Source of the DNA: Thermoproteota archaeon | GTDB lineage: Archaea > Korarchaeota > Korarchaeia > Korarchaeales > JAOZGB01 | DNA length: 64,000 nt | Direction: 5' to 3' | Assembly: GCA_037917685.1 (NCBI GenBank) | Contig: JAVCBU010000006.1 | Coordinates: forward strand, 320,001-384,000 | In this document: one piece after another, positions 1 to 39,250 of the stretch | Layout: each line of letters begins with the position of its first letter | Numbering within the stretch: the stretch's first letter is position 1 | The notes under the pieces: generated by a model | Database searches by the model: none | What the model was told of the DNA's origin: nothing | The model's input: only the letters and a program-made list of their open reading frames with translations | Position numbers and translations under genes: made by a program

Positions 1-595
1 CCACAACCTTATCTACCTTGTCCATGACGAACCTTGCTGCTGAGTCAACTATAAGGGTTACCGGAATGCCGTTCTCAGCAAGTATCCTAGATGTTATCCT
101 CCCCTGAAATTTCGGCCTAGTCTCCGTAGAGAACACCTTAAAACTTTTACCTTCTTTATGCGCATGTAAGAGAATACTTAGGGCGGCCGTGCTATGGCAG
201 TGGGTTAGAATTACATCCCCGTCTAAGATCCTTTTACTTCCAATCTCACCTATCCTCTCAACAGCAGCCAGCGAATTCTTTATGAACTCCTCCCCGCTCA
301 TAATGACTATTTCTCTCAAGTCGTCGACAGAATTTCCTTCGACATATCCCCTATAGGCCCTTATAAGCACGTACCTAAGAGCATTTGGTAGAGAAACAGC
401 TGTGGGACGAGTTGAATTCACAAACCTCGCTGTTTCTAAAAGTTCATGCCAGAATTCATCGCTGGTTCTAGCCTTTGACTCCCTAGCCACTATAACTAAG
501 CATTCAGCCGCAGCCCTAGCGATTTTTCCAGCTCCCCTAATAGTCATATCTCTAATCTTTTCAGCTATATCTACAACTTTCGGGTTAAACTTCAC
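1..595 (-). CDS. ribose-1,5-bisphosphate isomerase (eIF2B alpha/beta/delta family), 3' truncated by window edge
   Basis: Manual translation from GTG at 595: IRDMTIRGAGKIA...TRPTAVSLPNA...ILTHCHS...TETRPKFQG...VTLIVDSAARFVM; catalytic Cys in THCHS. Not in the ORF track because it runs off the edge. Confidence 0.88.
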   Translation of the reverse strand, partial: MKFNPKVVDIAEKIRDMTIRGAGKIARAAAECLVIVARESKARTSDEFWHELLETARFVNSTRPTAVSLPNALRYVLIRAYRGYVEGNSVDDLREIVIMSGEEFIKNSLAAVERIGEIGSKRILDGDVILTHCHSTAALSILLHAHKEGKSFKVFSTETRPKFQGRITSRILAENGIPVTLIVDSAARFVMDKVDKVV

Positions 596-649
596 AAAAG
601 TCTAACGGCATGTCAACCTTATTATTTTTCCCAGCCATATGTTAACTCA

Positions 650-937
650 ATGGTTGAAGAATTCCTATGTATGAACGCGCTGAAATACTGCGCCGAAGCG
701 AGAAAGCTCCAGCAGGAGGGAAAATATAAGCTTGCTGGTGAACTATGCATTAGAATCTCACAGCTGTGTAGGAAGAGGGGAGAAAACGCCAACATGGAGG
801 AGTGCATTCGAGAATCCAAACTATGCAGGAAGGCAGGTGAATTATTTATATCATCCGAAAATATCTCTGAAGCCCAGAAAATATGTCAGAAATCAGTAAA
901 ACTCTGTCCAAGAAGCAAGATTGGAATGTCAGGATAA
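650..937 (+). CDS. small Cys-rich helical-repeat (TPR/SNAP-like) hypothetical protein
   Basis: 95-aa ORF in a gap between genes; repeated AGEL motifs; 8 Cys; start may be ATG at 671. Confidence 0.5.
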   Translation: MVEEFLCMNALKYCAEARKLQQEGKYKLAGELCIRISQLCRKRGENANMEECIRESKLCRKAGELFISSENISEAQKICQKSVKLCPRSKIGMSG

Positions 938-1810
938 AACCCTTACAGATTCCCAAAACCTTGAGGTAAACGTAGCAACCCCCTCTCCCGGAGGATATAT
1001 CACCAACAAGGCAAACGCTCTACCAATCGTGAAGTCTTTCCAAAAGTAAACCCTACACTCACCCCTTCTCTTTCTAAGCAACGCATCCCTCACATAATAT
1101 TTCAAACCTCTGGACACAACATGAAACCCTCTAATATTCTTCTCCTCAGTCCATTCCTCAATAAATTTCCTCCCAACCATCTTTTCAGCTTCCCTAACCT
1201 TACGTTCCACGTCTTTAATCTTAATTTTCTCTGGGAAATGCCATCGGTAAAGTATAAAAAACTTTCTCCCACCCTTAAGTAGAGCTTTAGACTCTCCAAC
1301 CCGCAATTCTAGCTTAGAGACAACAAATCCCTTCGGTGTCTTAAACTCTAGGTTTAAAAGAGTCCAATATTCGTATTCTCCCCTCCAGTGGCACCTAAAC
1401 TTTTGTAGAATGTTGTTTAACGTCTCCTCAGCATCTTTAGGGCTCTGACTCCTATAGTAAACTAGAAAGTTAAGCCCTGATACATCGCAGTGCCAAATGC
1501 CACCCATGCCTTGAGCATCCTCCTCCTGAATCCTAAACTTCCCACACTTATGCCCCCTAATAGATGTAAAACCAGTCTTATATACATTAACAGTTTTCAA
1601 CTTTTTGGCCATAGCTTCGATGGAACGGTCGACATCAACAGTCCTACCAGGCTCCCATTTAACAATGAACCTCTCTCCAAACTCAATATCGCTTAGGGCT
1701 ACAATACCGCCACCCCGGCTAAAACCAAAACTTGAAATCTCCCAGTCCCTGCCCACCTCAACCTTAAAAACCCCCATCCCAAAGGGCTTACTCAAAAACC
1801 CCATACCCAT
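929..1810 (-). CDS. hypothetical protein, apparently two related alpha/beta halves
   Basis: 293-aa ORF; no recognised catalytic motif. Confidence 0.7.
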   Translation of the reverse strand: MGMGFLSKPFGMGVFKVEVGRDWEISSFGFSRGGGIVALSDIEFGERFIVKWEPGRTVDVDRSIEAMAKKLKTVNVYKTGFTSIRGHKCGKFRIQEEDAQGMGGIWHCDVSGLNFLVYYRSQSPKDAEETLNNILQKFRCHWRGEYEYWTLLNLEFKTPKGFVVSKLELRVGESKALLKGGRKFFILYRWHFPEKIKIKDVERKVREAEKMVGRKFIEEWTEEKNIRGFHVVSRGLKYYVRDALLRKRRGECRVYFWKDFTIGRAFALLVIYPPGEGVATFTSRFWESVRVLS

Positions 1811-1861
1811 TCTTATCCCCTATGAAACTTTATAAGCTCATTATGAGTAGCTATTCACAGA

Positions 1862-2485
1862 ATGACAGTGAATATTGCCGAACTGGAGAAACAGATAGAC
1901 ATGGATCTAACCCTAGGTAAAATCACCGAGGAAGAGTGGAAAAGGAAGATGGGTATAATTAAAAGCATTAAAAAACTTGATGAAGATTTAATCTACGGCA
2001 GGATAACAGAAGCCGAATATAAAAACAAGCGTGAAGCGCTAATTTCTCAACTCCAGCCACCCACGGCTGCCCCTACATACCAGCCTAAGCCTGAGACACC
2101 CCCTCCACCCCCGCTCTATACTAATATACAGAAAATCGTGTCAGAGCTTGAAATAGTGAAATCCAAGAGGAGAAAACTCTCTGATCTCCTCTTAAATAAG
2201 GAAATAAGCGAAAAAACCTTCAACAAGATAGATAACGAGCTGGAATCTGAGGAGAAGAAACTGGAGGAAAAACTGAAAAGTCTAAAATCTGAGATTGAAG
2301 AAAGAATAGAAAAGCTCTCATCCGAGCTGGAAGAACTAAAATTGCAGCTCGAAGAGGCACTAGCAAGGTGGAGAATAGGAGATATCACTGAGGATGAGTA
2401 TAACAGGAAGAAGTCGGAGCTGGAAGCAAGAAAAAACACGGTCGAGAACGAGCTGGAAACCTTGAAAAAGGCAGCGATAGACTAG
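1862..2485 (+). CDS. CdvA-like coiled-coil protein with tandem N-terminal SHOCT-like motifs and Pro-rich linker
   Basis: GKITEEEW and GRITEAEY motifs, PPPPP linker, then LSDLLLNKEISEKTF...coiled coil...ARWRIGDITEDEY as in the CdvA helical domain. Confidence 0.7.
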   Translation: MTVNIAELEKQIDMDLTLGKITEEEWKRKMGIIKSIKKLDEDLIYGRITEAEYKNKREALISQLQPPTAAPTYQPKPETPPPPPLYTNIQKIVSELEIVKSKRRKLSDLLLNKEISEKTFNKIDNELESEEKKLEEKLKSLKSEIEERIEKLSSELEELKLQLEEALARWRIGDITEDEYNRKKSELEARKNTVENELETLKKAAID

Positions 2486-2569
2486 CTCCCCCAGCCCCTT
2501 TATGTGCAAAATCCAAAACTCGACAGTACAAGGTAAATTTAAAAGACAGACAAGGTACAACATATCCAG

Positions 2570-4327
2570 ATGCCCAGTTTAGCAAAGCCTAAACAAAATA
2601 TCTATACAATAGGATACAGGTTCTTCAAACCTCTTGGAGAGCTGATAATGAAGCTCTACAAGGACCTACCAACAGATCTCGGCAAAGCAGATATGAGAGT
2701 ATACCCCCTAGCTTATGCATCAGCCGTCGCAATGCTAACCATAACCATGGCGGTCCTAATGGTTAGCATAAACCTAGTCCTCTACGCGGCTTTCAAAATA
2801 GTCTACCCCCTTATGATAGTCCTATGTATAATAATCCCAGTAATAACCTTCGCATTAGGATTGCTAGCCCCCGTCGTCTGGAAGTACAATAGGATAAAAT
2901 CTCTCGAGAATGAGACACCCTTCGCAGCAGCCTACATCTCTGTCATGTCCACAGGCGGGATAACACCCTTTAGAAGCATGAAAAGACTGAGCCAAGCCAA
3001 ACTACTGCCAAACCTGGCCAGAGTATCCAAGTACATAGTCTTCGATGTTTCATTGTTTGGAATAGACCCACTCTCAGCCATGGACAGAGCAGCCGAGAAT
3101 GTGCCGGCAAAAAGCTATTCCGAGCTAATAAAAGGATACGTTTCAACGGTTAGAACAGGAGGAGACTTCGTCCACTACCTGCTTCGGAAGACCGAGCTAA
3201 TGTTCAACGAGCGAATAGGACAACTAAGAATAATAGGGGAAAAGCTGGGTATGATGATGGAAGGATACATAGCGGTAACAGTACTCTTAGGCCTAGGGAT
3301 CTATGCCATATACATAACCAATGTAGCAATGCCAGTCCCTATGCCAATGTTCGGACAGGCGAGCTTCTTCCTGTTTACTTACATACTAACACCAATGATC
3401 TCGATTTTATTCTTATACCTTGGAGACATGATGCAACCATCCTATCCTGAAACTAACTGGAAAGTTTACAAGATATGGCTGGCGGGCCTAATACCTGGAA
3501 TAGTGGTAATCCTGTTATCAGCCATATTTCCAACCTTCCCGGTAAGAACCGCTGTAGAAAAACTTGTAATAGACATCCTAGGCTTAGGGCCTGGCACGGT
3601 TCTCCCAACTATCGTAGGATTATTGCTCATAATCTCAAGCATCCCGGGAGCCTGGGTAAGCATAAGATACGATAAAAGAAAGAGAGAAACGGAGAGAAAC
3701 CTGGCATTTTTCCTACGGGACCTCGTGGAGATAAGAAAGGCGGGATTACCACCTGAGAAGTGCATAGCAAACCTCAAAAATAGAGACTACGGTATCCTAT
3801 CACCACTGATAAAAAGGCTTTCAGCACAAATAGAATGGGGCATACCAATCCACAAAATTCTCCGTGATTTCAACAATTCAGTAAACAGCTGGCTTGCCAA
3901 AATGATGATGTTCCTCCTAGTAGACGCGATAGACATCGGTGGCGGAACCCCCCGCACGATGGAAGCAATGGCAAGCTACACCGAAATGATGAACGAAGTA
4001 GAAAATCAGAAGAGAGAACAGTTGAGACCACTCCTAATAGTACCATACATAGGAGCCCTAGTACTTGTAGTCTCAACGGTGATACTCCTAGGATTCATGA
4101 GAGGGGTTCTAGCCCTAGCAAGAATGGGAATAGCCTACGAATCTTTCCTTCAAATGTTCACAACACCCCTAGTGATAAACGTATACCTAATGGGCCTAGT
4201 ATCAGGAAAAGTAGGCGAAGAAAAAGTGTCAGCAGGAATAAAACACGCACTCCTACTAACCCTAATCTCAGTAGTAGCCCTGTGGATAACACCCTCAATA
4301 AGCATCACATTCGCACCAGTAGGATAA
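2570..4327 (+). CDS. type II/IV secretion system F-family membrane platform (PilC/FlaJ/TadC-like)
   Basis: Two T2SSF repeats (LENETPFAAAYISVMSTGGITP; LAFFLRDLVEIRKAGLPPE...IDIGGG) with multiple TM helices. Confidence 0.92.
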   Translation: MPSLAKPKQNIYTIGYRFFKPLGELIMKLYKDLPTDLGKADMRVYPLAYASAVAMLTITMAVLMVSINLVLYAAFKIVYPLMIVLCIIIPVITFALGLLAPVVWKYNRIKSLENETPFAAAYISVMSTGGITPFRSMKRLSQAKLLPNLARVSKYIVFDVSLFGIDPLSAMDRAAENVPAKSYSELIKGYVSTVRTGGDFVHYLLRKTELMFNERIGQLRIIGEKLGMMMEGYIAVTVLLGLGIYAIYITNVAMPVPMPMFGQASFFLFTYILTPMISILFLYLGDMMQPSYPETNWKVYKIWLAGLIPGIVVILLSAIFPTFPVRTAVEKLVIDILGLGPGTVLPTIVGLLLIISSIPGAWVSIRYDKRKRETERNLAFFLRDLVEIRKAGLPPEKCIANLKNRDYGILSPLIKRLSAQIEWGIPIHKILRDFNNSVNSWLAKMMMFLLVDAIDIGGGTPRTMEAMASYTEMMNEVENQKREQLRPLLIVPYIGALVLVVSTVILLGFMRGVLALARMGIAYESFLQMFTTPLVINVYLMGLVSGKVGEEKVSAGIKHALLLTLISVVALWITPSISITFAPVG

Positions 4328-4384
4328 CCAGACACACCCAAGCCTCAAAACCGAGAGCTTAAAAATCACATCAAGCCATTGAGC

Positions 4385-4984
4385 TTATAGAACTCTAAGT
4401 TTACTCTTAAGCCTAAGAGACAAAACAATAACCACAAACCCAACAATAACCAGTCCCGGAAGAATAAAACTAGTGATCAGGCTAGGCGGAGACCATCCTC
4501 CGGTAAAAGACAGTAATACAAGAGTATTAACGCCTGTCGAAAACATAAAGGTACCAAGGAACAACAACCAATTCGAACGCCGAACCATCTTTCGCTTATA
4601 ATTGGGATCAACCCTAAACTGCAAATAAGCCTTCCTCACAACTTCCTCAGGAACTCTAAGCCCTTCAAAACTCTTCAAAGCTTTCCTTGCAAACTCAACA
4701 GCCCCCCTGGCCTCCTCCATACTAGGCAAATACAAACTATGCAGACAATAATTCCTAAGCCTCCTATAATGATGTAACTCATCCCAAAAAGGAATCCTAA
4801 CCCCATGATCCCTCCCAAAAAACATCATATCAATTAAACCAGCCCTGTGAAGCTCCGGAATCCCGAAAGCCTCCCTAAGACCAATCTCTAAAGCCTTAAC
4901 TGACAAAATAACCGCAGCATCAAAAAGACCTGCCTTTAAAGCCTTATCAGCACGGTCCAAAAGCTCCCAACACCCACCGGGCAT
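4385..4984 (-). CDS. HEPN-domain protein with two C-terminal transmembrane helices
   Basis: FDAAVILSVKALE helix and RRLRNYCLH (RxxxxH) motif, followed by two hydrophobic segments and a basic tail. Confidence 0.72.
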   Translation of the reverse strand: MPGGCWELLDRADKALKAGLFDAAVILSVKALEIGLREAFGIPELHRAGLIDMMFFGRDHGVRIPFWDELHHYRRLRNYCLHSLYLPSMEEARGAVEFARKALKSFEGLRVPEEVVRKAYLQFRVDPNYKRKMVRRSNWLLFLGTFMFSTGVNTLVLLSFTGGWSPPSLITSFILPGLVIVGFVVIVLSLRLKSKLRVL

Positions 4985-4991
4985 ACAAACC

Positions 4992-5786
4992 CTACCTCCT
5001 CACCCGTTTCAAAAAGCCAAAACTAAATAAAAGTCTCCTCTTCGGCCTCACCACAATAGCCGGCGGCTTCACACCCATAATCCTAGCAGCCACACTCCTC
5101 AAAGCCAAAGCCGCAGGAGAATCAGGTTTAACCTTAGCCAAAACCTCAAGCCTAGCAGACGAAACTTTCATGGCAGGATCATGAGGGATGGCGCCCAAAA
5201 AAGGCATTTCCAGAATCCTCTCGAAACTCCGAACAACCTCAGGTCTAAGCAAACCCTGGTCTTCAACATCGTTCAAAACAAAACCCAAAGCCCGAGCCCT
5301 AACATTATCCCCTGTACCCTTAACAAACAAGGCAGCATCCAAGCTCCAAACATCAGGCTCTACAACGACTAGATACTCCCGGAAAGCGGACATAGCCCTA
5401 ACCACATTCCCCCCCAAACCCTGACCAGCATCCACAATAACATAATCAACACGGTCAGCAATAGAACCAAGCATCCTAACAAGATCATCAAAAAGAACAC
5501 CACCAGACCCCCGCCGGAAAGGCCTAACAGGAATAATTCCAAGCCTATCATGAATTCTCGTGGCATGAACAGCCTTCCACAGTGGAATACCCTCAGAAAC
5601 AACCCTCACCAAGTCAACCTCAACATCAGCAACCCCAAAAAGCCTCGACAAACAGGCAAACTCCAAATCACCATCAACCAACAAAACAACATTCCCAGCC
5701 TCAGCCAACAAAAAACCTAGGTTAGCACTAACAACAGTCTTACCAGTACCACCCTTCCCAGAAACCACCACAAAGCCACGCTTCAA
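4992..5786 (-). CDS. minD: MinD/ParA-family ATPase
   Basis: Deviant Walker A SGKGGTGKT, LLVDGDL, LGFVLN, IPHDP; C-terminal amphipathic RRLLFSFGFLKR; TTG start at 5786 with GAGG upstream. Confidence 0.85.
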   Translation of the reverse strand: MKRGFVVVSGKGGTGKTVVSANLGFLLAEAGNVVLLVDGDLEFACLSRLFGVADVEVDLVRVVSEGIPLWKAVHATRIHDRLGIIPVRPFRRGSGGVLFDDLVRMLGSIADRVDYVIVDAGQGLGGNVVRAMSAFREYLVVVEPDVWSLDAALFVKGTGDNVRARALGFVLNDVEDQGLLRPEVVRSFERILEMPFLGAIPHDPAMKVSSARLEVLAKVKPDSPAALALRSVAARIMGVKPPAIVVRPKRRLLFSFGFLKRVRR

Positions 5787-5872
5787 CCCCAACCTCAAAC
5801 ATACTAACAGACCGAAACATATAAAAATAATCCCAACCCCCCAAATAAATAGCAAGCCAACAACTAACAACA

Positions 5873-5902
5873 AACCAAAAAAGAAAGGGAAATAAAGGGA
5901 AG
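5873..5902 (-). terminator. oligo-pyrimidine terminator of pilin gene
   Basis: Minus strand reads TTCCCTTTATTTCCCTTTCTTTTTTGGTTTG immediately after the pilin stop. Confidence 0.55.
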
Positions 5903-5903
5903 T

Positions 5904-6341
5904 TTATGGGATAGCCACAGCCTTAGGATAATCCTTACCGCCTGCAGTATGCAGGGTAACTTCATATGTAACCCCGGATGACCAAGAGCCACCAGTTACA
6001 CTGGGCGGAATGTCACCATTGTAGATGTGTATAGTGACGCTAGCACCGCTAACCAGCGTTATAGGTAGCGTACCAGACAGATTCCCTCCACTTCTCACCG
6101 GGATTCCATTAATGAATACGTCAGTGATGGTGGCATCGGCGGACCCAGTATTCTTAACTCTTAGTGTAACTCTCTGGTTAGTTGAATCGTACCACGCAGC
6201 AGAGATTTCAAGCTTTTCAAATCTCGTAAAGATGCCGGCTATGCCAACGACCCAGTATGCGACCGCTATTGCTATTGCTATGGCGACTGCTACGATTATA
6301 ATGGTTGCTATTACCGGGGATATTCCCGCGTTTCTTCTCAT
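5904..6341 (-). CDS. archaeal type IV pilin (class III signal peptide)
   Basis: MRRNAG/ISPVIATIIIVAVAIAIAIAVAYW cleavage site and hydrophobic helix; beta-rich domain with VKNTG and VFING. Confidence 0.93.
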   Translation of the reverse strand: MRRNAGISPVIATIIIVAVAIAIAIAVAYWVVGIAGIFTRFEKLEISAAWYDSTNQRVTLRVKNTGSADATITDVFINGIPVRSGGNLSGTLPITLVSGASVTIHIYNGDIPPSVTGGSWSSGVTYEVTLHTAGGKDYPKAVAIP

Positions 6342-6371
6342 AACCTGATCATTTATTCTTGACTTTTCATA

Positions 6372-6387
6372 GAATTTAAATCTTTGT
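6372..6387 (-). promoter_or_regulatory. BRE/TATA promoter of pilin
   Basis: Minus strand CACAAAGATTTAAATTC about 35 nt upstream of the pilin ATG. Confidence 0.5.
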
Positions 6388-6614
6388 GATATTTTTGTTT
6401 GTTGTTGTTTTTTCTGGTAAATTTTTAAATATATGGCTATTTTCTAGGTATGTTTTTGATTTTTACATGATTTTATGTGTTTTTCAAGTTCATTCTTCCT
6501 TTTCGTGTTTTGAGTGGATTTTTAATGTTGTTAGATATGGTGGTTGTTTTCTTTTTAATATTATGGTTTTGACCTTGGCCTTTAGGTATGGTTTGGAGGT
6601 TAGATCCCCTCTCC

Positions 6615-6665
6615 TACATTGAGAGTTACATCTTCTAATATTTATTTGATGTAACTCTCAATGTA
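6615..6665. repeat. perfect 18-bp inverted repeat with 15-nt AT-rich spacer
   Basis: TACATTGAGAGTTACATC (6615-6632), TTCTAATATTTATTT, GATGTAACTCTCAATGTA (6648-6665). Confidence 0.95.
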
Positions 6666-6698
6666 AATACCCCCGTTCATTGGAGTGTGATGGTGCTT

Positions 6699-8297
6699 TT
6701 ACATTTTAATTGTTGTTTTAATCTTCCTTAAGTAGTATTCCCTTATCATTCTCCCTATTTCTCTGTAGTCTGTTACGTTTCTTTTGATCATTTCTTCTAT
6801 TAGCGCTTCTCTTTCTCTAATTTCGTTTATTATGTCTGGGACTGTTCTCGCTGTTTCTATGGCTATTTCTTTCAGTATCCTGCTTTTTGTTAGGTCTCCT
6901 ATGAACAGGTCCCTGCCTGCGTTCCACCAGAACACGGTGTTCTTCTGGAGGGTTGCGCCGTCATAGTCAATAATTTCATCTATTCTTTTTATCCTTCTAG
7001 CCATCCTTCCGTTAGGTAAGTTCACTCTTCCAAGTAGGATCGCTATTTTGATAAGGGGTATGTAAGCTGGTGCTATGTCCAGAGGTTTCTGTGTGAACCT
7101 CTTGATTGCTGCTTCGACACTGTCTGCGTGGAATGTTGTAAGTCCCCCGTGTCCTGTTGCTATTGCTTGTATTAGGGCGTATGCTTCTCTTCCTCTAATT
7201 TCTCCGACAATTATGTAGTCAGGTCGGTGTCTTAGGCTTGTCACTACTAGGTCGAATAGGTCTATTCCTCCTCCGGTTTCCTTGCTTACACCTAGCCCGT
7301 ATGCAGGTCTTGATATGAATTCTATCCAGTTTTCATGTGGTAGCCTTAGTTCCGCGGTTTCCTCTACTGTTATTATCTTTGCTTCAGGCCTTATCATACA
7401 TGATAGGGCATTTAGAAGTGTTGTTTTCCCAGCTGCTGTAGCCCCGATTATTAGTACAGCCTTTTTGTACTCCATGGCTATCCAGAGGTAGGCGGCCATT
7501 TCGCTTGTTAGAACTCCGAAGTTTATCAGGTCAACAATAGTGTAAGGTTTCTCTCTGAATTTTCTAATTGTGAATGTTCCACCTTTAGGGGTTATTTCAC
7601 GCCTGTAGCTTGCTGCAAGCCTGTGCTTTCCCTCGAGCATGACGTCTACTATGGGGAAGGCTGTTGAGATGTGTTTTCCAGCTCGATGGACGAGTTTTAC
7701 TATAAACTCGTCCAGGTATTCCTCGCTGTTGAAAATTATGTTTGTCTTCATGCTTTCATACTTTCTGTGCCAGATGTAAACTGGAACGCCGACTCCGTCG
7801 CACGATATGTCCTCGATGTTAGGATCCCTCATAAGTCCGTCGATCGGGCCGTAGCCTAGAAGGTTTCTTTTGATGTAGCACAGTATTTTAGGCCAGCTTA
7901 CCGTTTCTTTGAGTTTAATCTTATACTTTTTAGCTATCCTTGTAGCCTCTAGGGCGAGGTATTTCTCTCTGTCTTTTATCTCGTCAGGTGCCATTATTTC
8001 GCTTGACAGCATGTCGACTACAAGGTCGTATATCTCCTTCTCCTGCTTGTTCATTTTTTCCTCGATTACGAAATATCTTCTTTCCCCGTCAACAGGGTTC
8101 ATGGCTATGACAGCCTTGGAGAAAACCTTATATGTAGGGTATTCTTTCACTGTAGGAAACGGGTTAAGCTCTGGAGGGGCTGCTTCGAGCTCGGATGCTT
8201 CGTAAAGTTTATATGCTTCAATTATATCCCAGTCAGGGGGTAGTGGCTCTAGAGTGACTTCTTCAGGTTTTATTTCCCGTTCTAGTAATGACCACAT
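6699..8297 (-). CDS. type IV pilus/archaellum-family assembly ATPase (PilB/FlaI/VirB11)
   Basis: DPNIEDISCDG, FTIRKF, Walker A GATAAGKTT, EETAEL, RHRPDYIIVGEIRG, TGHGGLTTFHA. Confidence 0.95.
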   Translation of the reverse strand: MWSLLEREIKPEEVTLEPLPPDWDIIEAYKLYEASELEAAPPELNPFPTVKEYPTYKVFSKAVIAMNPVDGERRYFVIEEKMNKQEKEIYDLVVDMLSSEIMAPDEIKDREKYLALEATRIAKKYKIKLKETVSWPKILCYIKRNLLGYGPIDGLMRDPNIEDISCDGVGVPVYIWHRKYESMKTNIIFNSEEYLDEFIVKLVHRAGKHISTAFPIVDVMLEGKHRLAASYRREITPKGGTFTIRKFREKPYTIVDLINFGVLTSEMAAYLWIAMEYKKAVLIIGATAAGKTTLLNALSCMIRPEAKIITVEETAELRLPHENWIEFISRPAYGLGVSKETGGGIDLFDLVVTSLRHRPDYIIVGEIRGREAYALIQAIATGHGGLTTFHADSVEAAIKRFTQKPLDIAPAYIPLIKIAILLGRVNLPNGRMARRIKRIDEIIDYDGATLQKNTVFWWNAGRDLFIGDLTKSRILKEIAIETARTVPDIINEIREREALIEEMIKRNVTDYREIGRMIREYYLRKIKTTIKM

Positions 8298-8425
8298 ATC
8301 AACTATTATAGTATGGTGCTTACAATATTATAAATTAACATTGAAATCCTCTTATAAATTGTGAATTATCCTATGATTTCAAGTTAAAATCAAACATTTT
8401 ATATACAACTTAGGAGTTAGAACTA

Positions 8426-9304
8426 ATGATAATCTTGATTGAATTATCAAAACTGGAAGAAGAGCTGAGGGTTTTAGAAGATCTTTACAAATCGGGTCAG
8501 ATTTCAAGAGAAAAGTATATCAGTCGGATATCTGAAATTAAAGAGAGATTCGAGGCTATTAAAAGGAAGTACAGCTTGGAGAAGGGTGGAAAAGCCAAAG
8601 TGAAGCCTAGAATCTCACAAACAGAGTTGACCTATCTAAATATCATTAGAAAGTTCCCTGACATTTTAACACCGAAAATAGAGGGGTTCCTCCGAGTCTC
8701 ATTTAAGAAAGCCGCTGAGGTTTTCGGAGAGCAGGAAAGCGAAACGATGAGCACCCTTACCAGGCTGGAGTCGGCGGGTGTACTCAGAAAGGAGAGGATG
8801 TTATCTCTTTTGAAGTGCCCAAAATGTGGTAATGAGGGTCTGGTGCTGACCGTTAGGTGCCCTCACTGCGATAGCCCTAGCCTGCACAAAAGAATCATTC
8901 TGAAACACTTGCCATGCGGCCATGTGGACTTTACAGAAAACTATATGAGAGAAAGAGGGAGCCTGGTATGTCCTTCATGTTTTAGACCTATAGAGAACGA
9001 GTATGAGAAGCTAGGGATATTTGTGTGCGAAGAATGCGGGAGAGTATCCTCTCTTCCTCTCGTCAAAGGTTTCTGCACTGCTTGCCAAGCGGAAGTTGAT
9101 GTGAGAGACTCGGATATACTGCCTGTCTTTTCGTTCTCCATGCCATCCGAAATAGCTAAGCATGTTATGCCAGAGCTTTCAGCGTTTGAGTTTGAAAAGG
9201 AATTCACAGAAAGGATAGAGAAGCATCTCAGAGTTGCAAGGCAGGAGAGTGATAAGTCTACCGAGATAAGGAAGCTTTTCAAAGAGATTCTGGAAAAGAA
9301 GTAG
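8426..9304 (+). CDS. multi-zinc-ribbon TackOD1-like protein with N-terminal SHOCT-like motif
   Basis: wHTH-like LTRLESAGVL followed by CPKC, CPHC, HLPCGH, CPSC, CEEC, CTAC; N-terminal LYKSGQISREKY. Confidence 0.75.
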   Translation: MIILIELSKLEEELRVLEDLYKSGQISREKYISRISEIKERFEAIKRKYSLEKGGKAKVKPRISQTELTYLNIIRKFPDILTPKIEGFLRVSFKKAAEVFGEQESETMSTLTRLESAGVLRKERMLSLLKCPKCGNEGLVLTVRCPHCDSPSLHKRIILKHLPCGHVDFTENYMRERGSLVCPSCFRPIENEYEKLGIFVCEECGRVSSLPLVKGFCTACQAEVDVRDSDILPVFSFSMPSEIAKHVMPELSAFEFEKEFTERIEKHLRVARQESDKSTEIRKLFKEILEKK

Positions 9305-9371
9305 ATAGAATCGCAGGCTTGGAGATCCGAAGGTATGATTTAAATTATTAACATCATAAGATGGATAAATT

Positions 9372-10247
9372 ATGTTGTCTTCATCAAAGTCATTTCTCAT
9401 GATACTACTGGCTAATCTTTTATTGTCTCTCAGTCAGCCTCCAGTTCAGATTAAACTTTCATATCCTGAGAAGGTTAGGATTGGAGAGGTTGCAAATATA
9501 ACTGTAAGTATTAAAAATATGTGGGGTGGGGAAATCCCCTCCATTATAGTATGCGATAACGTAACCCATACCTGTAGATTTATTGGCCCATTGCAACCAG
9601 GTCAGGAGGATTATCTGACGTATCAAGCCAAGATACTTGAGCCTAAAGCATATAATTTCTACTTCACGGTGGATATTCCAAGCTTGAACTATACCTCAAC
9701 TTACTACGCGCACATACAGGGGTTTATGTATGATTCTCTCCTCCCATTTGTCATGGTTTCCGGGCCGCTGCTTCTAACAGTTTTGTTATATAGGCGCAGA
9801 AACCGAATTCCCTTTATATTAGCCTTGTTAGGCATGGTTTTATGGGCTTTATATGGTGTTTGGAGTGTGGAGTATAGTCTTATCCTAAGATTCTCAACCG
9901 AGATATGCCTGAGCTGCCTTGGTCTAGAGGCGGAGAAACATGTTGCGACACTTTCCCCCGAGAGTGTGGCCAGGCTTAACTCTCTGGAGAGGGAAGTACA
10001 CATAATCTTGTTCACAAGTGAGCATTGTAAGGCCTGTCCAGCTGCGAAACACCTTGTCAGCCTCATTTCAAACGCATCTGGAGGCATGGTCAAGTACGTT
10101 GAGCTAGACGTGGCAACACACAAGTCTGAGGCTGAGGAGTACGGCGTTAGGTTTGTTCCAACAATCATAGTTGGTAACGTTAAGATTGAGGGTGTGCCGT
10201 CGGAGGGGTATTTGGTTGACGTGATAGTTAAGGAAGCTGGAGGGTGA
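9372..10247 (+). CDS. membrane-anchored thioredoxin-fold protein with Ig-like N-domain and CLSCLG motif
   Basis: Signal peptide, CARDB-like segment (ITVSIKN...LQPGQE), 2 TM helices, ICLSCLGLE, thioredoxin CKAC and cis-Pro VPT. Confidence 0.8.
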   Translation: MLSSSKSFLMILLANLLLSLSQPPVQIKLSYPEKVRIGEVANITVSIKNMWGGEIPSIIVCDNVTHTCRFIGPLQPGQEDYLTYQAKILEPKAYNFYFTVDIPSLNYTSTYYAHIQGFMYDSLLPFVMVSGPLLLTVLLYRRRNRIPFILALLGMVLWALYGVWSVEYSLILRFSTEICLSCLGLEAEKHVATLSPESVARLNSLEREVHIILFTSEHCKACPAAKHLVSLISNASGGMVKYVELDVATHKSEAEEYGVRFVPTIIVGNVKIEGVPSEGYLVDVIVKEAGG

Positions 10248-11083
10248 GTGGTTTGAGGGGTAGGCTCATCCGCCTTAGAAGGGTGCTTCAATTCATCGGG
10301 TTAGTATTGGCAAACCTTGGAGTACTTGGTCTTTCCCACATAGGCTTCGTATATCCATACCTCTACTGCTACGCTTGTCCCTACTCCATTCTCGGCTGTC
10401 CATTCGGGGTTCTCCAAAACATGATGATCGTCCGGGCCATCCCCTTTCTAAGCATTGGAGGTCTATTCTCGATATATCTTTTTTCAGGTAGGTTCTTCTG
10501 CGGGTGGATCTGCCCTATAGGACTGCTCACGGAGATGTTTCATAAAGCTGAGAGACTTATATACACTAAACTCCTTAAAGTTGAGGTGAAAATGGCTTCA
10601 CCACCCAAGCCTTCAACATTCGTTAAGTACGGGGTTCTAGTAGTTTCGCTGATAGTAGCCTACATGTTTAAAGATACCTACTTCTGTAAAGGGTGCATAG
10701 CTGGGTTCTTGGTTGCGGGGATACCGTATAGGCTAAGGCTTCATATAGGTCTCTTCTCAGGTCTAACCCTAACCCATCCCTTTACAATACACATTATAAC
10801 CTTCATCATAATCCTAATTCTAAGCCTATCATACCTCGGAAAGTTCTGGTGCAGGTTTATATGTCCTGTCGGTGCGCTAGCGGGAATTCTAAACAATGTT
10901 TCACTTCTCAGGCTTGAATATGATGAGTCAAAATGTACAGGATGCATGTTATGTGTACAGGCGTGCCCTATGGCTATCAATCCCACGCATCTAGACGCTT
11001 ACACAGAGTCAGACTGTATAAGATGCGGCTCCTGCGTTGACGCATGTCAAAATGGGAGTCTAAGACTATTGTTTAAACCCTAA
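10244..11083 (+). CDS. membrane polyferredoxin (NapH/MauN-like 4Fe-4S binding protein)
   Basis: CYAC, GCP, FCGWICP, WCRFICP and two CxxCxxCxxxC motifs. Confidence 0.9.
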   Translation: MSGLRGRLIRLRRVLQFIGLVLANLGVLGLSHIGFVYPYLYCYACPYSILGCPFGVLQNMMIVRAIPFLSIGGLFSIYLFSGRFFCGWICPIGLLTEMFHKAERLIYTKLLKVEVKMASPPKPSTFVKYGVLVVSLIVAYMFKDTYFCKGCIAGFLVAGIPYRLRLHIGLFSGLTLTHPFTIHIITFIIILILSLSYLGKFWCRFICPVGALAGILNNVSLLRLEYDESKCTGCMLCVQACPMAINPTHLDAYTESDCIRCGSCVDACQNGSLRLLFKP

Positions 11084-12192
11084 TCTGTAATGACGATTAA
11101 ACACTCCGACAACTGTACCTGGCCATCGAAGTTTAGATCCCTCCACTCTATAACAGCCATTGTAATTCCTTGGAACAAGCTGCCTGATAAAGCAACCATA
11201 AGCGATGCAGCCTTCGTACCATATCTTGTGCATCCCTGGATAGAAAGAATATATCCATCCCCCTCCTCTGTAAAGTATATAACTGCGTAATCCCTCCATC
11301 CCCAGTATTCGCGCTTGTAGGTCCACTCAGAGCCAAGTGCTCTAAGTACTACCGCATCCTCTAGCACGGTAAAGTCCACGTCTACCTTATCATTCAATTT
11401 CGCTACTCCAGGTACTGCGACTGGTCCTCCAACGGTTATTAGAGGCCTGTCTTTCGGGATAGCGTATAGTTGAAGACTTCCCTCTGCCTTTAGCGCTGAA
11501 TCTAGTAACATTACAGAGGCATAGTCGCTGATGCTGCCATATACTATTGTTGAATACATAGATTTGTTGAGTATAAATCCGTAAATGTCATGGGCTGTGG
11601 CGTTGACAGGAGGTGGTGTTGGCGGAATGTAGCTTCTCTGATATCCTACCACAGCCCTAATCATAATGTTTCCATTTACAGGTGTATAACTTTTATTACC
11701 GCAAAAGTAAATGTAGCTCCTCCCTTTAGACGGGGAACTCGTGTCTAAACCTACCATGGGTCTGTAGCCATTTGGAGTTTCTTTTAAAGGTTTTATAAGT
11801 ATGTAGAAGCCTGGCATAGGAGCATCAAGACTGTAACCTTGAAGGTTAACTTCGCACCATCCGGAAGACTCAGGTTTAAAATGCTCACCGGTATAGATGC
11901 TGTATCTAAATGTTTCCACATACTCCGAACTCCACAAAACAATGTCAAACTCTTCAGCAGAGTCTAAGTAAACCTTTACTGACAAAAGCTTGCCTTCAGG
12001 CTGGTCTACAGTAAAGTAAACCATGTAATAGCATCCTCTTATGCTACCAAGGTTTAGAAACCCCTCCGCTGAACCGTCGTCGTAGCTTATCTCTACAGGC
12101 AATATCTGCGCCTCGGCGTATTGGTAAGTTGTTAGAATGAGGCATACAATGGCAAATACAGCAGTTAACCCCGAGAAACTGCGCATATGCAA
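11080..12192 (-). CDS. secreted/surface hypothetical protein with C-terminal DxNxDG Ca-binding motif
   Basis: Signal peptide; ISYDDG beta domain; Pro linker; VGGP; GTKAA; WRDLNFDG. Confidence 0.7.
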   Translation of the reverse strand: MHMRSFSGLTAVFAIVCLILTTYQYAEAQILPVEISYDDGSAEGFLNLGSIRGCYYMVYFTVDQPEGKLLSVKVYLDSAEEFDIVLWSSEYVETFRYSIYTGEHFKPESSGWCEVNLQGYSLDAPMPGFYILIKPLKETPNGYRPMVGLDTSSPSKGRSYIYFCGNKSYTPVNGNIMIRAVVGYQRSYIPPTPPPVNATAHDIYGFILNKSMYSTIVYGSISDYASVMLLDSALKAEGSLQLYAIPKDRPLITVGGPVAVPGVAKLNDKVDVDFTVLEDAVVLRALGSEWTYKREYWGWRDYAVIYFTEEGDGYILSIQGCTRYGTKAASLMVALSGSLFQGITMAVIEWRDLNFDGQVQLSECLIVITD

Positions 12193-38326: not shown

Positions 38327-39250
38327 CTAGACCACTACGGTCTTCCTCTTATCGTAGTATATCATCGTTAGAACTACTGCAAGGTATGTCAGGAATAGTG
38401 CACCTATAAGGGATGAGACAACCGTCGACACAACTGGTATGATGACAATCCCCGTGAACATGAAAGCCACGATGAAGTATGCTACGAGTGGGAGGAAGAT
38501 GGCCGCGAATATCGTGAGGAAGTTATTTTTCCCAATGTTAAAACTCACACTTAGAGCTTCGATTGCATCGTGGTCGTCAATCATTATAGCCTGGGTGGTC
38601 AACGCCAGTAGAACAAATAGTATAATCCCTGGTATGACACACAGCAAAAGGCCGATGGTCACTGCAACTGCTACAACGATTCCTGCAATTACCAGGGGAA
38701 CTATCTTCCCCAGCGCCTCGGAAAACGTTAAGCTAAGGTCGATAGGCCGGCCCTGCAATCCGTGTGATACCATTGCTACCGTCCATCCTTCAAGTATCCT
38801 GTATATCAGGAATACTAGGAAAGTGTACAGTATTATGGCTGAACCTATAAAGCCGAACCCTCCTAAACCATACTGTGGTGGAGCCGGTCCAGGTCTAGGC
38901 CAGCCTGTGAGGGTCGCTCCTAAGATGGCTAGAGATATGATCGATGTTAAGATTGCAGCCGCTATGAAGGGTACGAAAACTATGTAGTTGGCGGTGCAAA
39001 AGCGGAAAGCATCACTTAGAATATCAAATACACCCCTCTCCGGCTGTGCATACACTGTTGGAGGTGGTGCGTGAGGCGGCGTGGGCGGCGGGGCTGGTGT
39101 AGGAGCTGGCGCGCCTGCCCTCTGTATCTCTGCAAGTTGAGCTTCATACTTTGCTTTTAGCTCTCTATACGTTTCAGATGATATTTTGCCTTCAATATAC
39201 GATTCCTCAAGTTTCCTTATAAGTTCCTTTAACCTTTCTTCCTCGGACAT
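38327..39250 (-). CDS. multi-pass membrane protein with N-terminal SHOCT-like motif and Pro-rich linker
   Basis: LEESYIEGKISSETY, PAPTPAPPPTPP, about 6 TM helices, CVIPGI. Confidence 0.78.
   Translation of the reverse strand: MSEEERLKELIRKLEESYIEGKISSETYRELKAKYEAQLAEIQRAGAPAPTPAPPPTPPHAPPPTVYAQPERGVFDILSDAFRFCTANYIVFVPFIAAAILTSIISLAILGATLTGWPRPGPAPPQYGLGGFGFIGSAIILYTFLVFLIYRILEGWTVAMVSHGLQGRPIDLSLTFSEALGKIVPLVIAGIVVAVAVTIGLLLCVIPGIILFVLLALTTQAIMIDDHDAIEALSVSFNIGKNNFLTIFAAIFLPLVAYFIVAFMFTGIVIIPVVSTVVSSLIGALFLTYLAVVLTMIYYDKRKTVVV

Follow-up and report, generated by a model that had tools for sequence, protein, structure and literature searches.

A candidate pilus-linked membrane HEPN protein in an uncharacterised archaeal type IV pilus locus

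The stretch of DNA analysed here (the window: 64,000 nucleotides, positions 320,001 to 384,000 of contig JAVCBU010000006.1) belongs to an uncultured hot-sediment archaeon, a member of a small phylum of the TACK group whose genome (G000) comprises 1.81 Mb in 22 contigs. Seven contiguous genes in its first 9.3 kb encode the core of a type IV pilus (T4P) together with a coiled-coil protein, a MinD-type ATPase, a TackOD1 protein and a small protein, hereafter HEPN-2TM, in which a predicted HEPN domain precedes two membrane helices. The list of open reading frames (ORFs) returned all seven in the order and at the coordinates given by an earlier interpretation made from the letters alone (the sequence-only reading). 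We conclude that this is an uncharacterised, clade-4-like archaeal T4P locus, a relative of the archaellum, the Ups pilus and the bindosome, and that HEPN-2TM is a rare, lineage-restricted, membrane-anchored RNase-like protein whose link to pili seems new. We put the odds at about even (probability roughly 0.55) that HEPN-2TM acts together with the machine encoded by such a locus, as an RNase or regulator of the HEPN type that is tethered to the membrane.

Families were assigned by setting Pfam and NCBIfam profile scores against curated cut-offs. The platform protein (2570..4327, plus strand, 585 aa), polytopic and TadC/FlaJ/UpsF-like, matched T2SSF (PF00482) over two stretches with 79.8 bits against a cut-off of 25.2, and the VirB11/FlaI-like assembly ATPase (6699..8297, minus strand, 532 aa) matched T2SSE (PF00437) with 111.3 bits against 24.9. 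Together with the MinD and TackOD1 proteins described below, these two were called correctly by the sequence-only reading, all four scoring over their Pfam cut-offs. The pilin (5904..6341, minus strand, 145 aa) was a less clear case: its class III signal-peptide-like N-terminus, RRNAG/ISPVIATIIIVAVAIAIAIAVA, is typical and of the GISPVIATIIIVAV type, but the protein falls below every curated cut-off (Pilin_N 19.9 vs 25.2; UpsA-like 31.6 vs 130; TIGR02537 16.9 vs 20). Models of characterised machines also scored low, both for the platform (UpsF-like 89.6 vs 400) and for the ATPase (FlaI-like NF058587 354.7 vs 550; BasE-like 257 vs 1000), and BasF reached 60.5 against 1300. Pfam and NCBIfam searches of the locus for archaellum accessory genes gave ArlF and ArlG only at E values of 0.002-0.05, on the pilin, and no KaiC-like ArlH. 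Because the FlaI, BasE, UpsF and UpsA models, like BasF, all score far below their equivalog cut-offs and the archaellum accessory genes are absent from the locus, we rejected the archaellum, the Ups pilus and the bindosome as identities of the machine. The genome has four T2SSE matches over cut-off, and two of the other three lie within pilus-like gene clusters. Its single A24 prepilin peptidase (PF01478, 46.4 bits; G000:C1:195143-195460) is on a different contig from the locus.

HEPN-2TM (4385..4984, minus strand, 199 aa) is composed of an N-terminal domain (residues ~1-125) and a C-terminal two-helix membrane hairpin (~129-197). Across seven homologues sharing 33-89% identity, residues R74, R77, N78, C80, L81 and H82 are invariant, and the Rx4-6H signature of the HEPN superfamily is present as R77-N78-Y-C-L-H82 (RNxCLH). 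In the AlphaFold (AF2) model, a confident one with a predicted local distance difference test score (pLDDT) of 85.7, six helices make up the N-terminal domain and two long ones come after it. Exhaustive structure comparison of residues 1-111 placed it closest to 2hsb (Z 13.3; root-mean-square deviation 2.9 over 110 residues) and 1ufb (Z 12.8), values to be read with the caveat that a Z of ~13 is a grey zone for helical bundles; further matches were the HEPN domain of sacsin (Z 11.3), 1wol (Z 11.2) and Csm6 (Z 9.0). The top five Foldseek hits were likewise all HEPN or HEPN-type, but at E ~1. Judged from the conserved RNxCLH motif and the predicted fold, the HEPN identity proposed in the sequence-only reading holds, though it lacks a Pfam match. 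The domain is predicted to face the cytoplasm, since each of the two membrane helices has basic residues at its HEPN-side end; the external loop has few residues.

The family is small. Its profile, searched against 1.84 billion representative proteins, retrieved only five full-length clusters and then HEPN domains of other proteins. Nine of the 16 remote matches that were scanned carry a Pfam HEPN domain over the cut-off, and some of the remote HEPN matches are fused to nucleotidyltransferase or SIR2 domains; the family profile reaches proteins with PF05168 or DUF4145 at E values from 3e-11 to 1e-4. A protein homologue search with HEPN-2TM returned itself and one 89%-identical protein only. 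With the profile, genome contigs yielded just the four loci already known, metagenomes one close relative (on contig L070), one duplicate of the G039 sequence and one weak match, and viral contigs no match. Protein Atlas scores were only 0.75-0.77, an uninformative level.

The connection with pili emerged from the distribution of HEPN-2TM among 43 genomes of the phylum, a small and phylogenetically clustered sample in which 36 genomes belong to the neighbouring family f2. HEPN-2TM occurs in six of them (G000 and G038-G042) and in none of the 36 f2 genomes. These six are exactly the genomes that carry this subfamily of pilus ATPase (at least 41% identity): orthologues of the window's ATPase, 41-55% identical to it, were found outside G000 only in G038-G042, and the best matches in f2 reach 36-39%. 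In three of the five informative genomes HEPN-2TM lies beside pilus genes, each time in a different arrangement. The window has it between the MinD and platform genes. In G041 it is found upstream of an ATPase-platform operon, at a distance of 530 bp, and in G040 it sits between two pilin genes, adjoining an A24 peptidase, some 20 kb from the ATPase-platform pair. The platform proteins of G040 and G041, encoded directly after the ATPase, are orthologues of the window's (45% identity); G040 also has homologues of the window's pilin (59-63% identity), one of which adjoins the A24 prepilin peptidase and HEPN-2TM genes. It is this perfect co-occurrence with one ATPase subfamily, combined with adjacency in three lineages and three arrangements, that argues for a HEPN-pilus link. 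The metagenome contig L070, 82% identical to positions 3-5547 of the window, keeps the order MinD, HEPN-2TM, platform, coiled-coil protein and a 293-aa gene that flanks the locus. None of the papers listed by our literature search describes a link between HEPN proteins and type IV pili in archaea. HEPN, SHOCT and CdvA go unmentioned in the accessible portions of the main texts of Makarova 2016 (PMC4858521) and of a census of type 4 filaments in archaea published in 2026 (Sivabalasarma & Albers 2026, PMC13705601), whose supplements may list this lineage, as do pili in the accessible portion of the HEPN survey of Anantharaman 2013 (PMC3710099).

The MinD/ParA-type ATPase precedes HEPN-2TM on the minus strand. 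Its longest ORF (4992..5873, 293 aa) adds a hydrophobic N-terminus of 29 residues over a TTG start at 5786. The shorter version (4992..5786, 264 aa) is likelier, because GAGGT stands 5 nt before that TTG and a 94%-identical database protein begins exactly MKRGFVVVSGKGG, as the window's protein does when started there (MKRGFVVVSGKGG). The protein scored 55.7 bits with CbiA (PF01656), over the cut-off, and 145.2 with the archaeal MinD model TIGR01969, below its cut-off of 201.75. Its deviant Walker A motif SGKGGTGKT, with the signature lysine, and the switch and Walker B aspartates D38, D40 and D119 are invariant in ten aligned sequences, and it ends in an amphipathic basic tail, PKRRLLFSFGFLKRVRR, with similar tails in seven of the other nine; such a tail would suit membrane targeting and a role in positioning. 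The HEPN-2TM gene starts 7 nt past the MinD stop codon and a GAGGAGG box lies inside the 3' end of MinD, an arrangement that makes co-transcription and translational coupling of the two genes, downstream of the pilin gene, likely. Complex prediction for MinD (264 aa) with the HEPN domain (residues 1-128) scored 0.00 in two runs without controls and is evidence neither way.

Close relatives of this MinD are scarce: among 5.8 billion clusters there were only two (94% and 61% identity), followed by proteins at ~31% whose source names are FlhG or CpaE. At E ≤ 1e-20, the window's type of MinD is confined to G000, which has two copies, and to G001, G038 and G039. The second MinD of the genome is 40% identical to the copy in the pilus locus and is paired with a conserved 215-aa gene. 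This ordinary MinD of the genus, followed by the 215-aa protein, which has no Pfam family, is found at L073 7261-8663 (G000:C6) and at L074 (G001), and the 215-aa protein may be its dedicated partner. In a tree of ten sequences, the clade of the window's MinD is sister to the paralogue of its own genus (support 85/88) on a long stem; the tree is too weak to separate duplication from transfer. In G038 and G039, MinD is one small gene away from the orthologous pilus ATPase, and these loci also hold a KaiC-like ATPase, a coiled-coil protein and a crenactin. The G038 cluster (L045 7569-14027) groups the ATPase with the KaiC-like ATPase, a coiled-coil protein of 225 aa, a platform protein, a SHOCT-like protein of 67 aa, MinD, a membrane protein of 69 aa and a crenactin-like gene of the actin family, and a second T2SSE ATPase lies upstream.

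At the other end of the locus, the TackOD1 gene (8426..9304, plus strand, 292 aa) is divergent from the ATPase gene. Its product scored 75.6 bits with PF18551 (cut-off 32) and has five CxxC motifs plus HLPC, 11 cysteines in all (CPKC, CPHC, HLPC, CPSC, CEEC, CTAC), a pattern that fits the description of TackOD1 in the accessible part of Galperin 2018 (PMC5847659). An N-terminal helical hairpin with one SHOCT-like turn is followed by a domain resembling a winged helix-turn-helix (wHTH), the multi-zinc-ribbon TackOD1 domain and a short helical tail. In the predicted model (pLDDT 81.9), residues ~57-118 align with wHTH regulators of the ArsR/MarR type at middling Z scores of 7.5-8.3. The AT-rich intergenic region shared with the ATPase gene (8298..8425, 128 bp) contains TATA-like boxes facing both ways, read by eye as TTTATATA ~25 nt before the TackOD1 ATG and as a TTTATAAT-like box before the ATPase ATG; both are putative promoters. 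TackOD1 homologues are present in 24 of the 36 f2 genomes, often as tandem pairs, and at loci L033-L043 such pairs are followed by a multi-pass membrane protein of ~490 aa. Unlike the window's protein, the in-phylum homologues have no N-terminal hairpin and do have an alpha/beta domain of ~100 residues at the C-terminus; they are paralogues, and they say little about the window's gene.

The protein at the upstream edge of the locus, a cytoplasmic coiled-coil protein by its sequence (1862..2485, plus strand, 207 aa), contains three SHOCT/GvpG-like G-x-I-T-x-x-E-Y/W repeats. It stayed below the cut-offs of all models it resembled, namely GvpG (28.6), the CdvA-like coiled coil PF18822 (26.6 vs 30) and SHOCT (PF09851; 17.2 vs 27, residues 173-187). 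CdvA proteins have an N-terminal PRC-barrel domain. No PRC-barrel matched here and NF041007 scored 16 against 350, and we rejected the CdvA label of the sequence-only reading. The same reading had pointed to a SHOCT-like motif common to the two proteins that bracket the locus. The letters are indeed present in both, and a regular-expression form of the motif occurs in seven of the genome's 2092 ORFs, of which the two bracketing proteins alone look SHOCT-like, the other five being enzymes or unrelated proteins. Statistically, though, the resemblance is weak: a repeat hidden Markov model (HMM) of the coiled-coil family finds three copies in the coiled-coil protein (E ~1e-11) and reaches the TackOD1 protein only at E = 0.76 among the 2092 ORFs. 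The shared motif is real as letters and weak as evidence of kinship. The only other significant match of this HMM in the genome (E ~1e-3) is the N-terminus of a 307-aa protein at 38327-39250 (minus strand) of the window, whose C-terminal half has weak matches to the membrane-protein families UPF0259 and DUF1673, below cut-offs.

Homologues of the coiled-coil protein (35-47% identity) were found in 17 of the 43 genomes at E ≤ 0.01. None of eight such loci lies near T4P core genes, as judged with BLAST and tblastn using the window's proteins, a check that very divergent pilus genes of other types could escape; the genes found beside them encode methyltransferases, PAP2 proteins or proteins resembling acetyl-CoA synthetase. 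An ATPase of 35% identity is encoded ~10 kb from the coiled-coil homologue of G008, and was not counted as adjacent. Only on L070, the 82%-identical contig, do the genes for the coiled-coil and platform proteins again stand next to each other, and membership of the coiled-coil protein in the pilus system is doubtful; it is probably a mere neighbour. The spacing of the two genes differs between the two DNAs: 84 bp in the window, and ~700 bp of extra DNA in L070 (2956-3706), in which there is no convincing ORF. Rfam gave no match at E ≤ 0.01 in that DNA, elsewhere in L070 or in positions 1-12000 of the window.

Several parts of the locus have precedents. Bacterial TadZ/CpaE and FlhG/FleN and the haloarchaeal MinD4 are MinD/ParA ATPases that place pili, flagella or archaella. 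The window's MinD shares with them a deviant Walker A ATPase domain encoded with a filament machine and a C-terminal amphipathic tail; unlike CpaE, it has no receiver-like N-domain. MinD4 is a positioning MinD/ParA ATPase as cited in the accessible part of the 2026 census (PMC13705601), which also notes MinD-like ATPases in archaeal filament systems. In the accessible part of Makarova 2016 (PMC4858521), MinD/FleN ATPases are the most abundant regulators linked to archaeal T4P, and double zinc-ribbon proteins of arCOG06883 are found mostly in thaumarchaeal pilus loci; the corresponding part of Galperin 2018 (PMC5847659) equates TackOD1 with arCOG06883 and places it within those loci. As far as these excerpts go, clade 4 pili with FleN/MinD (PMC4858521; subsystem 4G in PMC13705601) resemble the window's locus in having an ATPase-platform-pilin core in a TACK archaeon, a MinD-type ATPase and small cytoplasmic helical proteins, whereas gene complement and order differ: the window has one pilin and no adhesin, and its ATPase and platform genes are separated and convergent. 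The thaumarchaeal TackOD1 proteins, by the same partial account (PMC5847659), share with ours a PF18551 match over cut-off, five CxxC plus HxxC, a wHTH-like domain in front and a position beside pilus genes, but the window's protein has no receiver domain and has the additional N-terminal SHOCT-like helical hairpin. The closest precedent for HEPN-2TM in the accessible part of the HEPN survey (PMC3710099) is a bacterial group with an N-terminal HEPN domain, a pair of transmembrane helices and a C-terminal zinc ribbon. Both have an N-terminal cytoplasmic HEPN domain with the catalytic signature and two membrane helices, with a predicted action on RNA at the inner membrane face; HEPN-2TM differs in being archaeal, in lacking the zinc ribbon, in forming a separate small family (five clusters) and in its link to pili. 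The sequence-only reading had not recognised this combination of genes as a known system. For MinD and TackOD1 that is no longer so, their presence in archaeal pilus loci being already published; here they are another example of known pilus companions, with nothing new on either. What seems new is the HEPN-pilus link.

We propose the following explanation. The ATPase, platform protein and pilin would build the filament, with the prepilin peptidase supplied from elsewhere in the genome. By analogy with TadZ/CpaE, FlhG and haloarchaeal MinD4, MinD most likely governs the site of the machine's assembly, or whether it is assembled at all, and the TackOD1 protein, with its wHTH and zinc ribbons and its gene divergent from that of the ATPase, most likely regulates the locus or the motor. 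HEPN-2TM would act at or with the pilus machine, conceivably in physical contact with it, as a membrane-tethered RNase or as a regulator binding RNA or nucleotides. Archaeal type IV pili serve in adhesion and DNA exchange and as virus receptors, yet little is known of their placement and control except in a few model species. A functional link, should it prove to be one, would couple a surface filament to an effector of the RNase type, through a protein that stays with pilus genes across rearrangements. A bolder version, in which HEPN-2TM is a pilus-coupled membrane RNase whose hairpin senses the state of the machine or the membrane pool of pilins, would make it an archaeal surveillance or abortive-infection device within a surface filament locus. 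The sensed state could shift, for example, when a virus docks on or enters via the pilus, or when assembly stalls. We regard this version as speculative and distinctly improbable.

A number of observations weigh against a HEPN protein working with the pilus. HEPN-2TM matched no Pfam family at E ≤ 0.1, and hence no HEPN family directly, nor did it match anything in PADLOC. The link to pili rests on few related genomes, three linked lineages of which two belong to one family, and one genus departs from the adjacency: in G038 and G039 the gene adjoins HD-domain, TmcA and AlaX-like genes instead of pilus genes, and in G042 it lies at a contig end. G040 and G041 have HEPN-2TM without a MinD of the window's type at E ≤ 1e-20, and because of this the two proteins are not obligate partners. 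As for the wider locus, none of 11 in-phylum TackOD1 loci (ORF lists inspected for four) lies near T4P genes by the neighbourhood check used for the coiled-coil protein, and the adjacency of TackOD1 to the pilus genes could be checked in the window's genome alone. Finally, MinD and HEPN-2TM (window 4385-5873, minus strand) are compositional outliers with a G+T-rich coding strand. Against 1337 ORFs, their AT-skew z scores are -4.3 and -3.2 and their GC-skew z scores +3.2 and +2.4, respectively, with normal G+C content overall and at third codon positions; MinD is the most G+V+R+L+A-rich of these ORFs and, for V/(V+I), ranks at the 99.6th percentile. Such a composition could reflect arrival as a separate cassette.

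Pursued to its end, this last point would mean that MinD and HEPN-2TM were acquired on their own as a two-gene cassette, for example an ATPase paired with an RNase that is toxin-like or serves in abortive infection, came to lie in a pilus locus of variable make-up and have no pilus role. The aberrant coding strand and the V/G/R/L-rich proteins, unlike those of their neighbours, would be accounted for, as would the interruption of the ATPase-platform adjacency that is present in G040 and G041 and the long branch of the T4P-linked MinD clade, and among the closest structural relatives of HEPN-2TM are Abi proteins and the toxins of HEPN-MNT pairs, themselves HEPN proteins. Yet the ORF list and Pfam matches show no nucleotidyltransferase antitoxin, integrase or transposase nearby; PADLOC, silent on HEPN-2TM, gave only weak matches for MinD and the other proteins (E ~1e-3), and the viral contigs held no relative. 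Moreover, HEPN-2TM turns up again beside pilus genes in G040 and G041, differently arranged and without MinD, and the flanking genes of the locus (a 95-aa TPR-like ORF and the 293-aa gene) are shared with the pilus region of G038. We consider a cassette without pilus role unlikely. Somewhat harder to credit is a non-catalytic function, in which HEPN-2TM would be an adaptor in the membrane and belong to the machine as a subunit of structural or regulatory importance instead of cutting RNA. Its HEPN domain would then bind a nucleotide or another protein, for instance the ATPase, MinD or prepilin. Non-catalytic binding is common among HEPN domains, and the one of sacsin ranks high among the fold matches; the coupling of the gene to MinD is tight, and since the external loop has few residues, any signal would need to arrive by way of the membrane helices or from the cytoplasm. 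It is the full R-x-x-R-N-x-C-L-H, invariant across homologues of 33-89% identity as expected for an active HEPN site, that makes such an adaptor rather improbable.

The sequence-only reading itself had gone further than a pilus-linked HEPN protein and taken all four accessory proteins, the coiled-coil SHOCT protein, MinD, HEPN-2TM and TackOD1, for one dedicated module of pilus positioning or surveillance. The contiguity of the seven genes invites this view, as do the SHOCT-like turn and the weak GvpG matches (1.6e-6 and 0.092) in both bracketing proteins, and in G038 the small SHOCT-like and the 225-aa coiled-coil proteins are again encoded near an ATPase, a platform protein and MinD. No other species-level genome among the 43 holds the set together, however, and each accessory gene has its own distribution; the seven genes do not make up a conserved module. 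The expected co-occurrence with pilus genes was found in part, for HEPN-2TM in G040 and G041 and for MinD, beside the ATPase, in G038 and G039; it failed for the coiled-coil protein (eight of eight loci away from T4P genes) and for the in-phylum TackOD1 homologues. Even the first two are split: HEPN-2TM accompanies pilus genes where this type of MinD is absent, and MinD accompanies the ATPase where HEPN-2TM is elsewhere. Since, in addition, the motif shared by the bracketing proteins is not significant by HMM and the CdvA label has fallen, a single integrated seven-gene module is very improbable, and a membrane-tethered HEPN protein working with the pilus machine remains our preferred reading.

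The genes around the locus and around related pilus genes gave some further observations. Upstream, at 650-1810 of the window, the flanking 95-aa ORF is Cys-rich and TPR-like and the 293-aa gene has no known family; their counterparts lie ~5 kb from the pilus ATPase in G038, where the copy of the 293-aa gene has eight in-frame stops. In G041 (L076 1216-3839), a homologue of the pilin (38% identity) has as its neighbours a small GTPase resembling Arf and a pair of Roadblock/LC7 proteins, of which one scores below the Pfam cut-off, an arrangement reminiscent of polarity modules of the MglA/MglB type. Downstream of TackOD1, three genes occupy 9372-12192 of the window. The first two overlap by 4 nt and both specify membrane proteins, one ending in a thioredoxin domain and the next a 4Fe-4S protein similar to NapH. 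The product of the third gene, which is on the minus strand, is a secreted protein of 370 aa with a weak S-layer-like match; at least 11 homologues of its C-terminal region are encoded in other parts of the genome.

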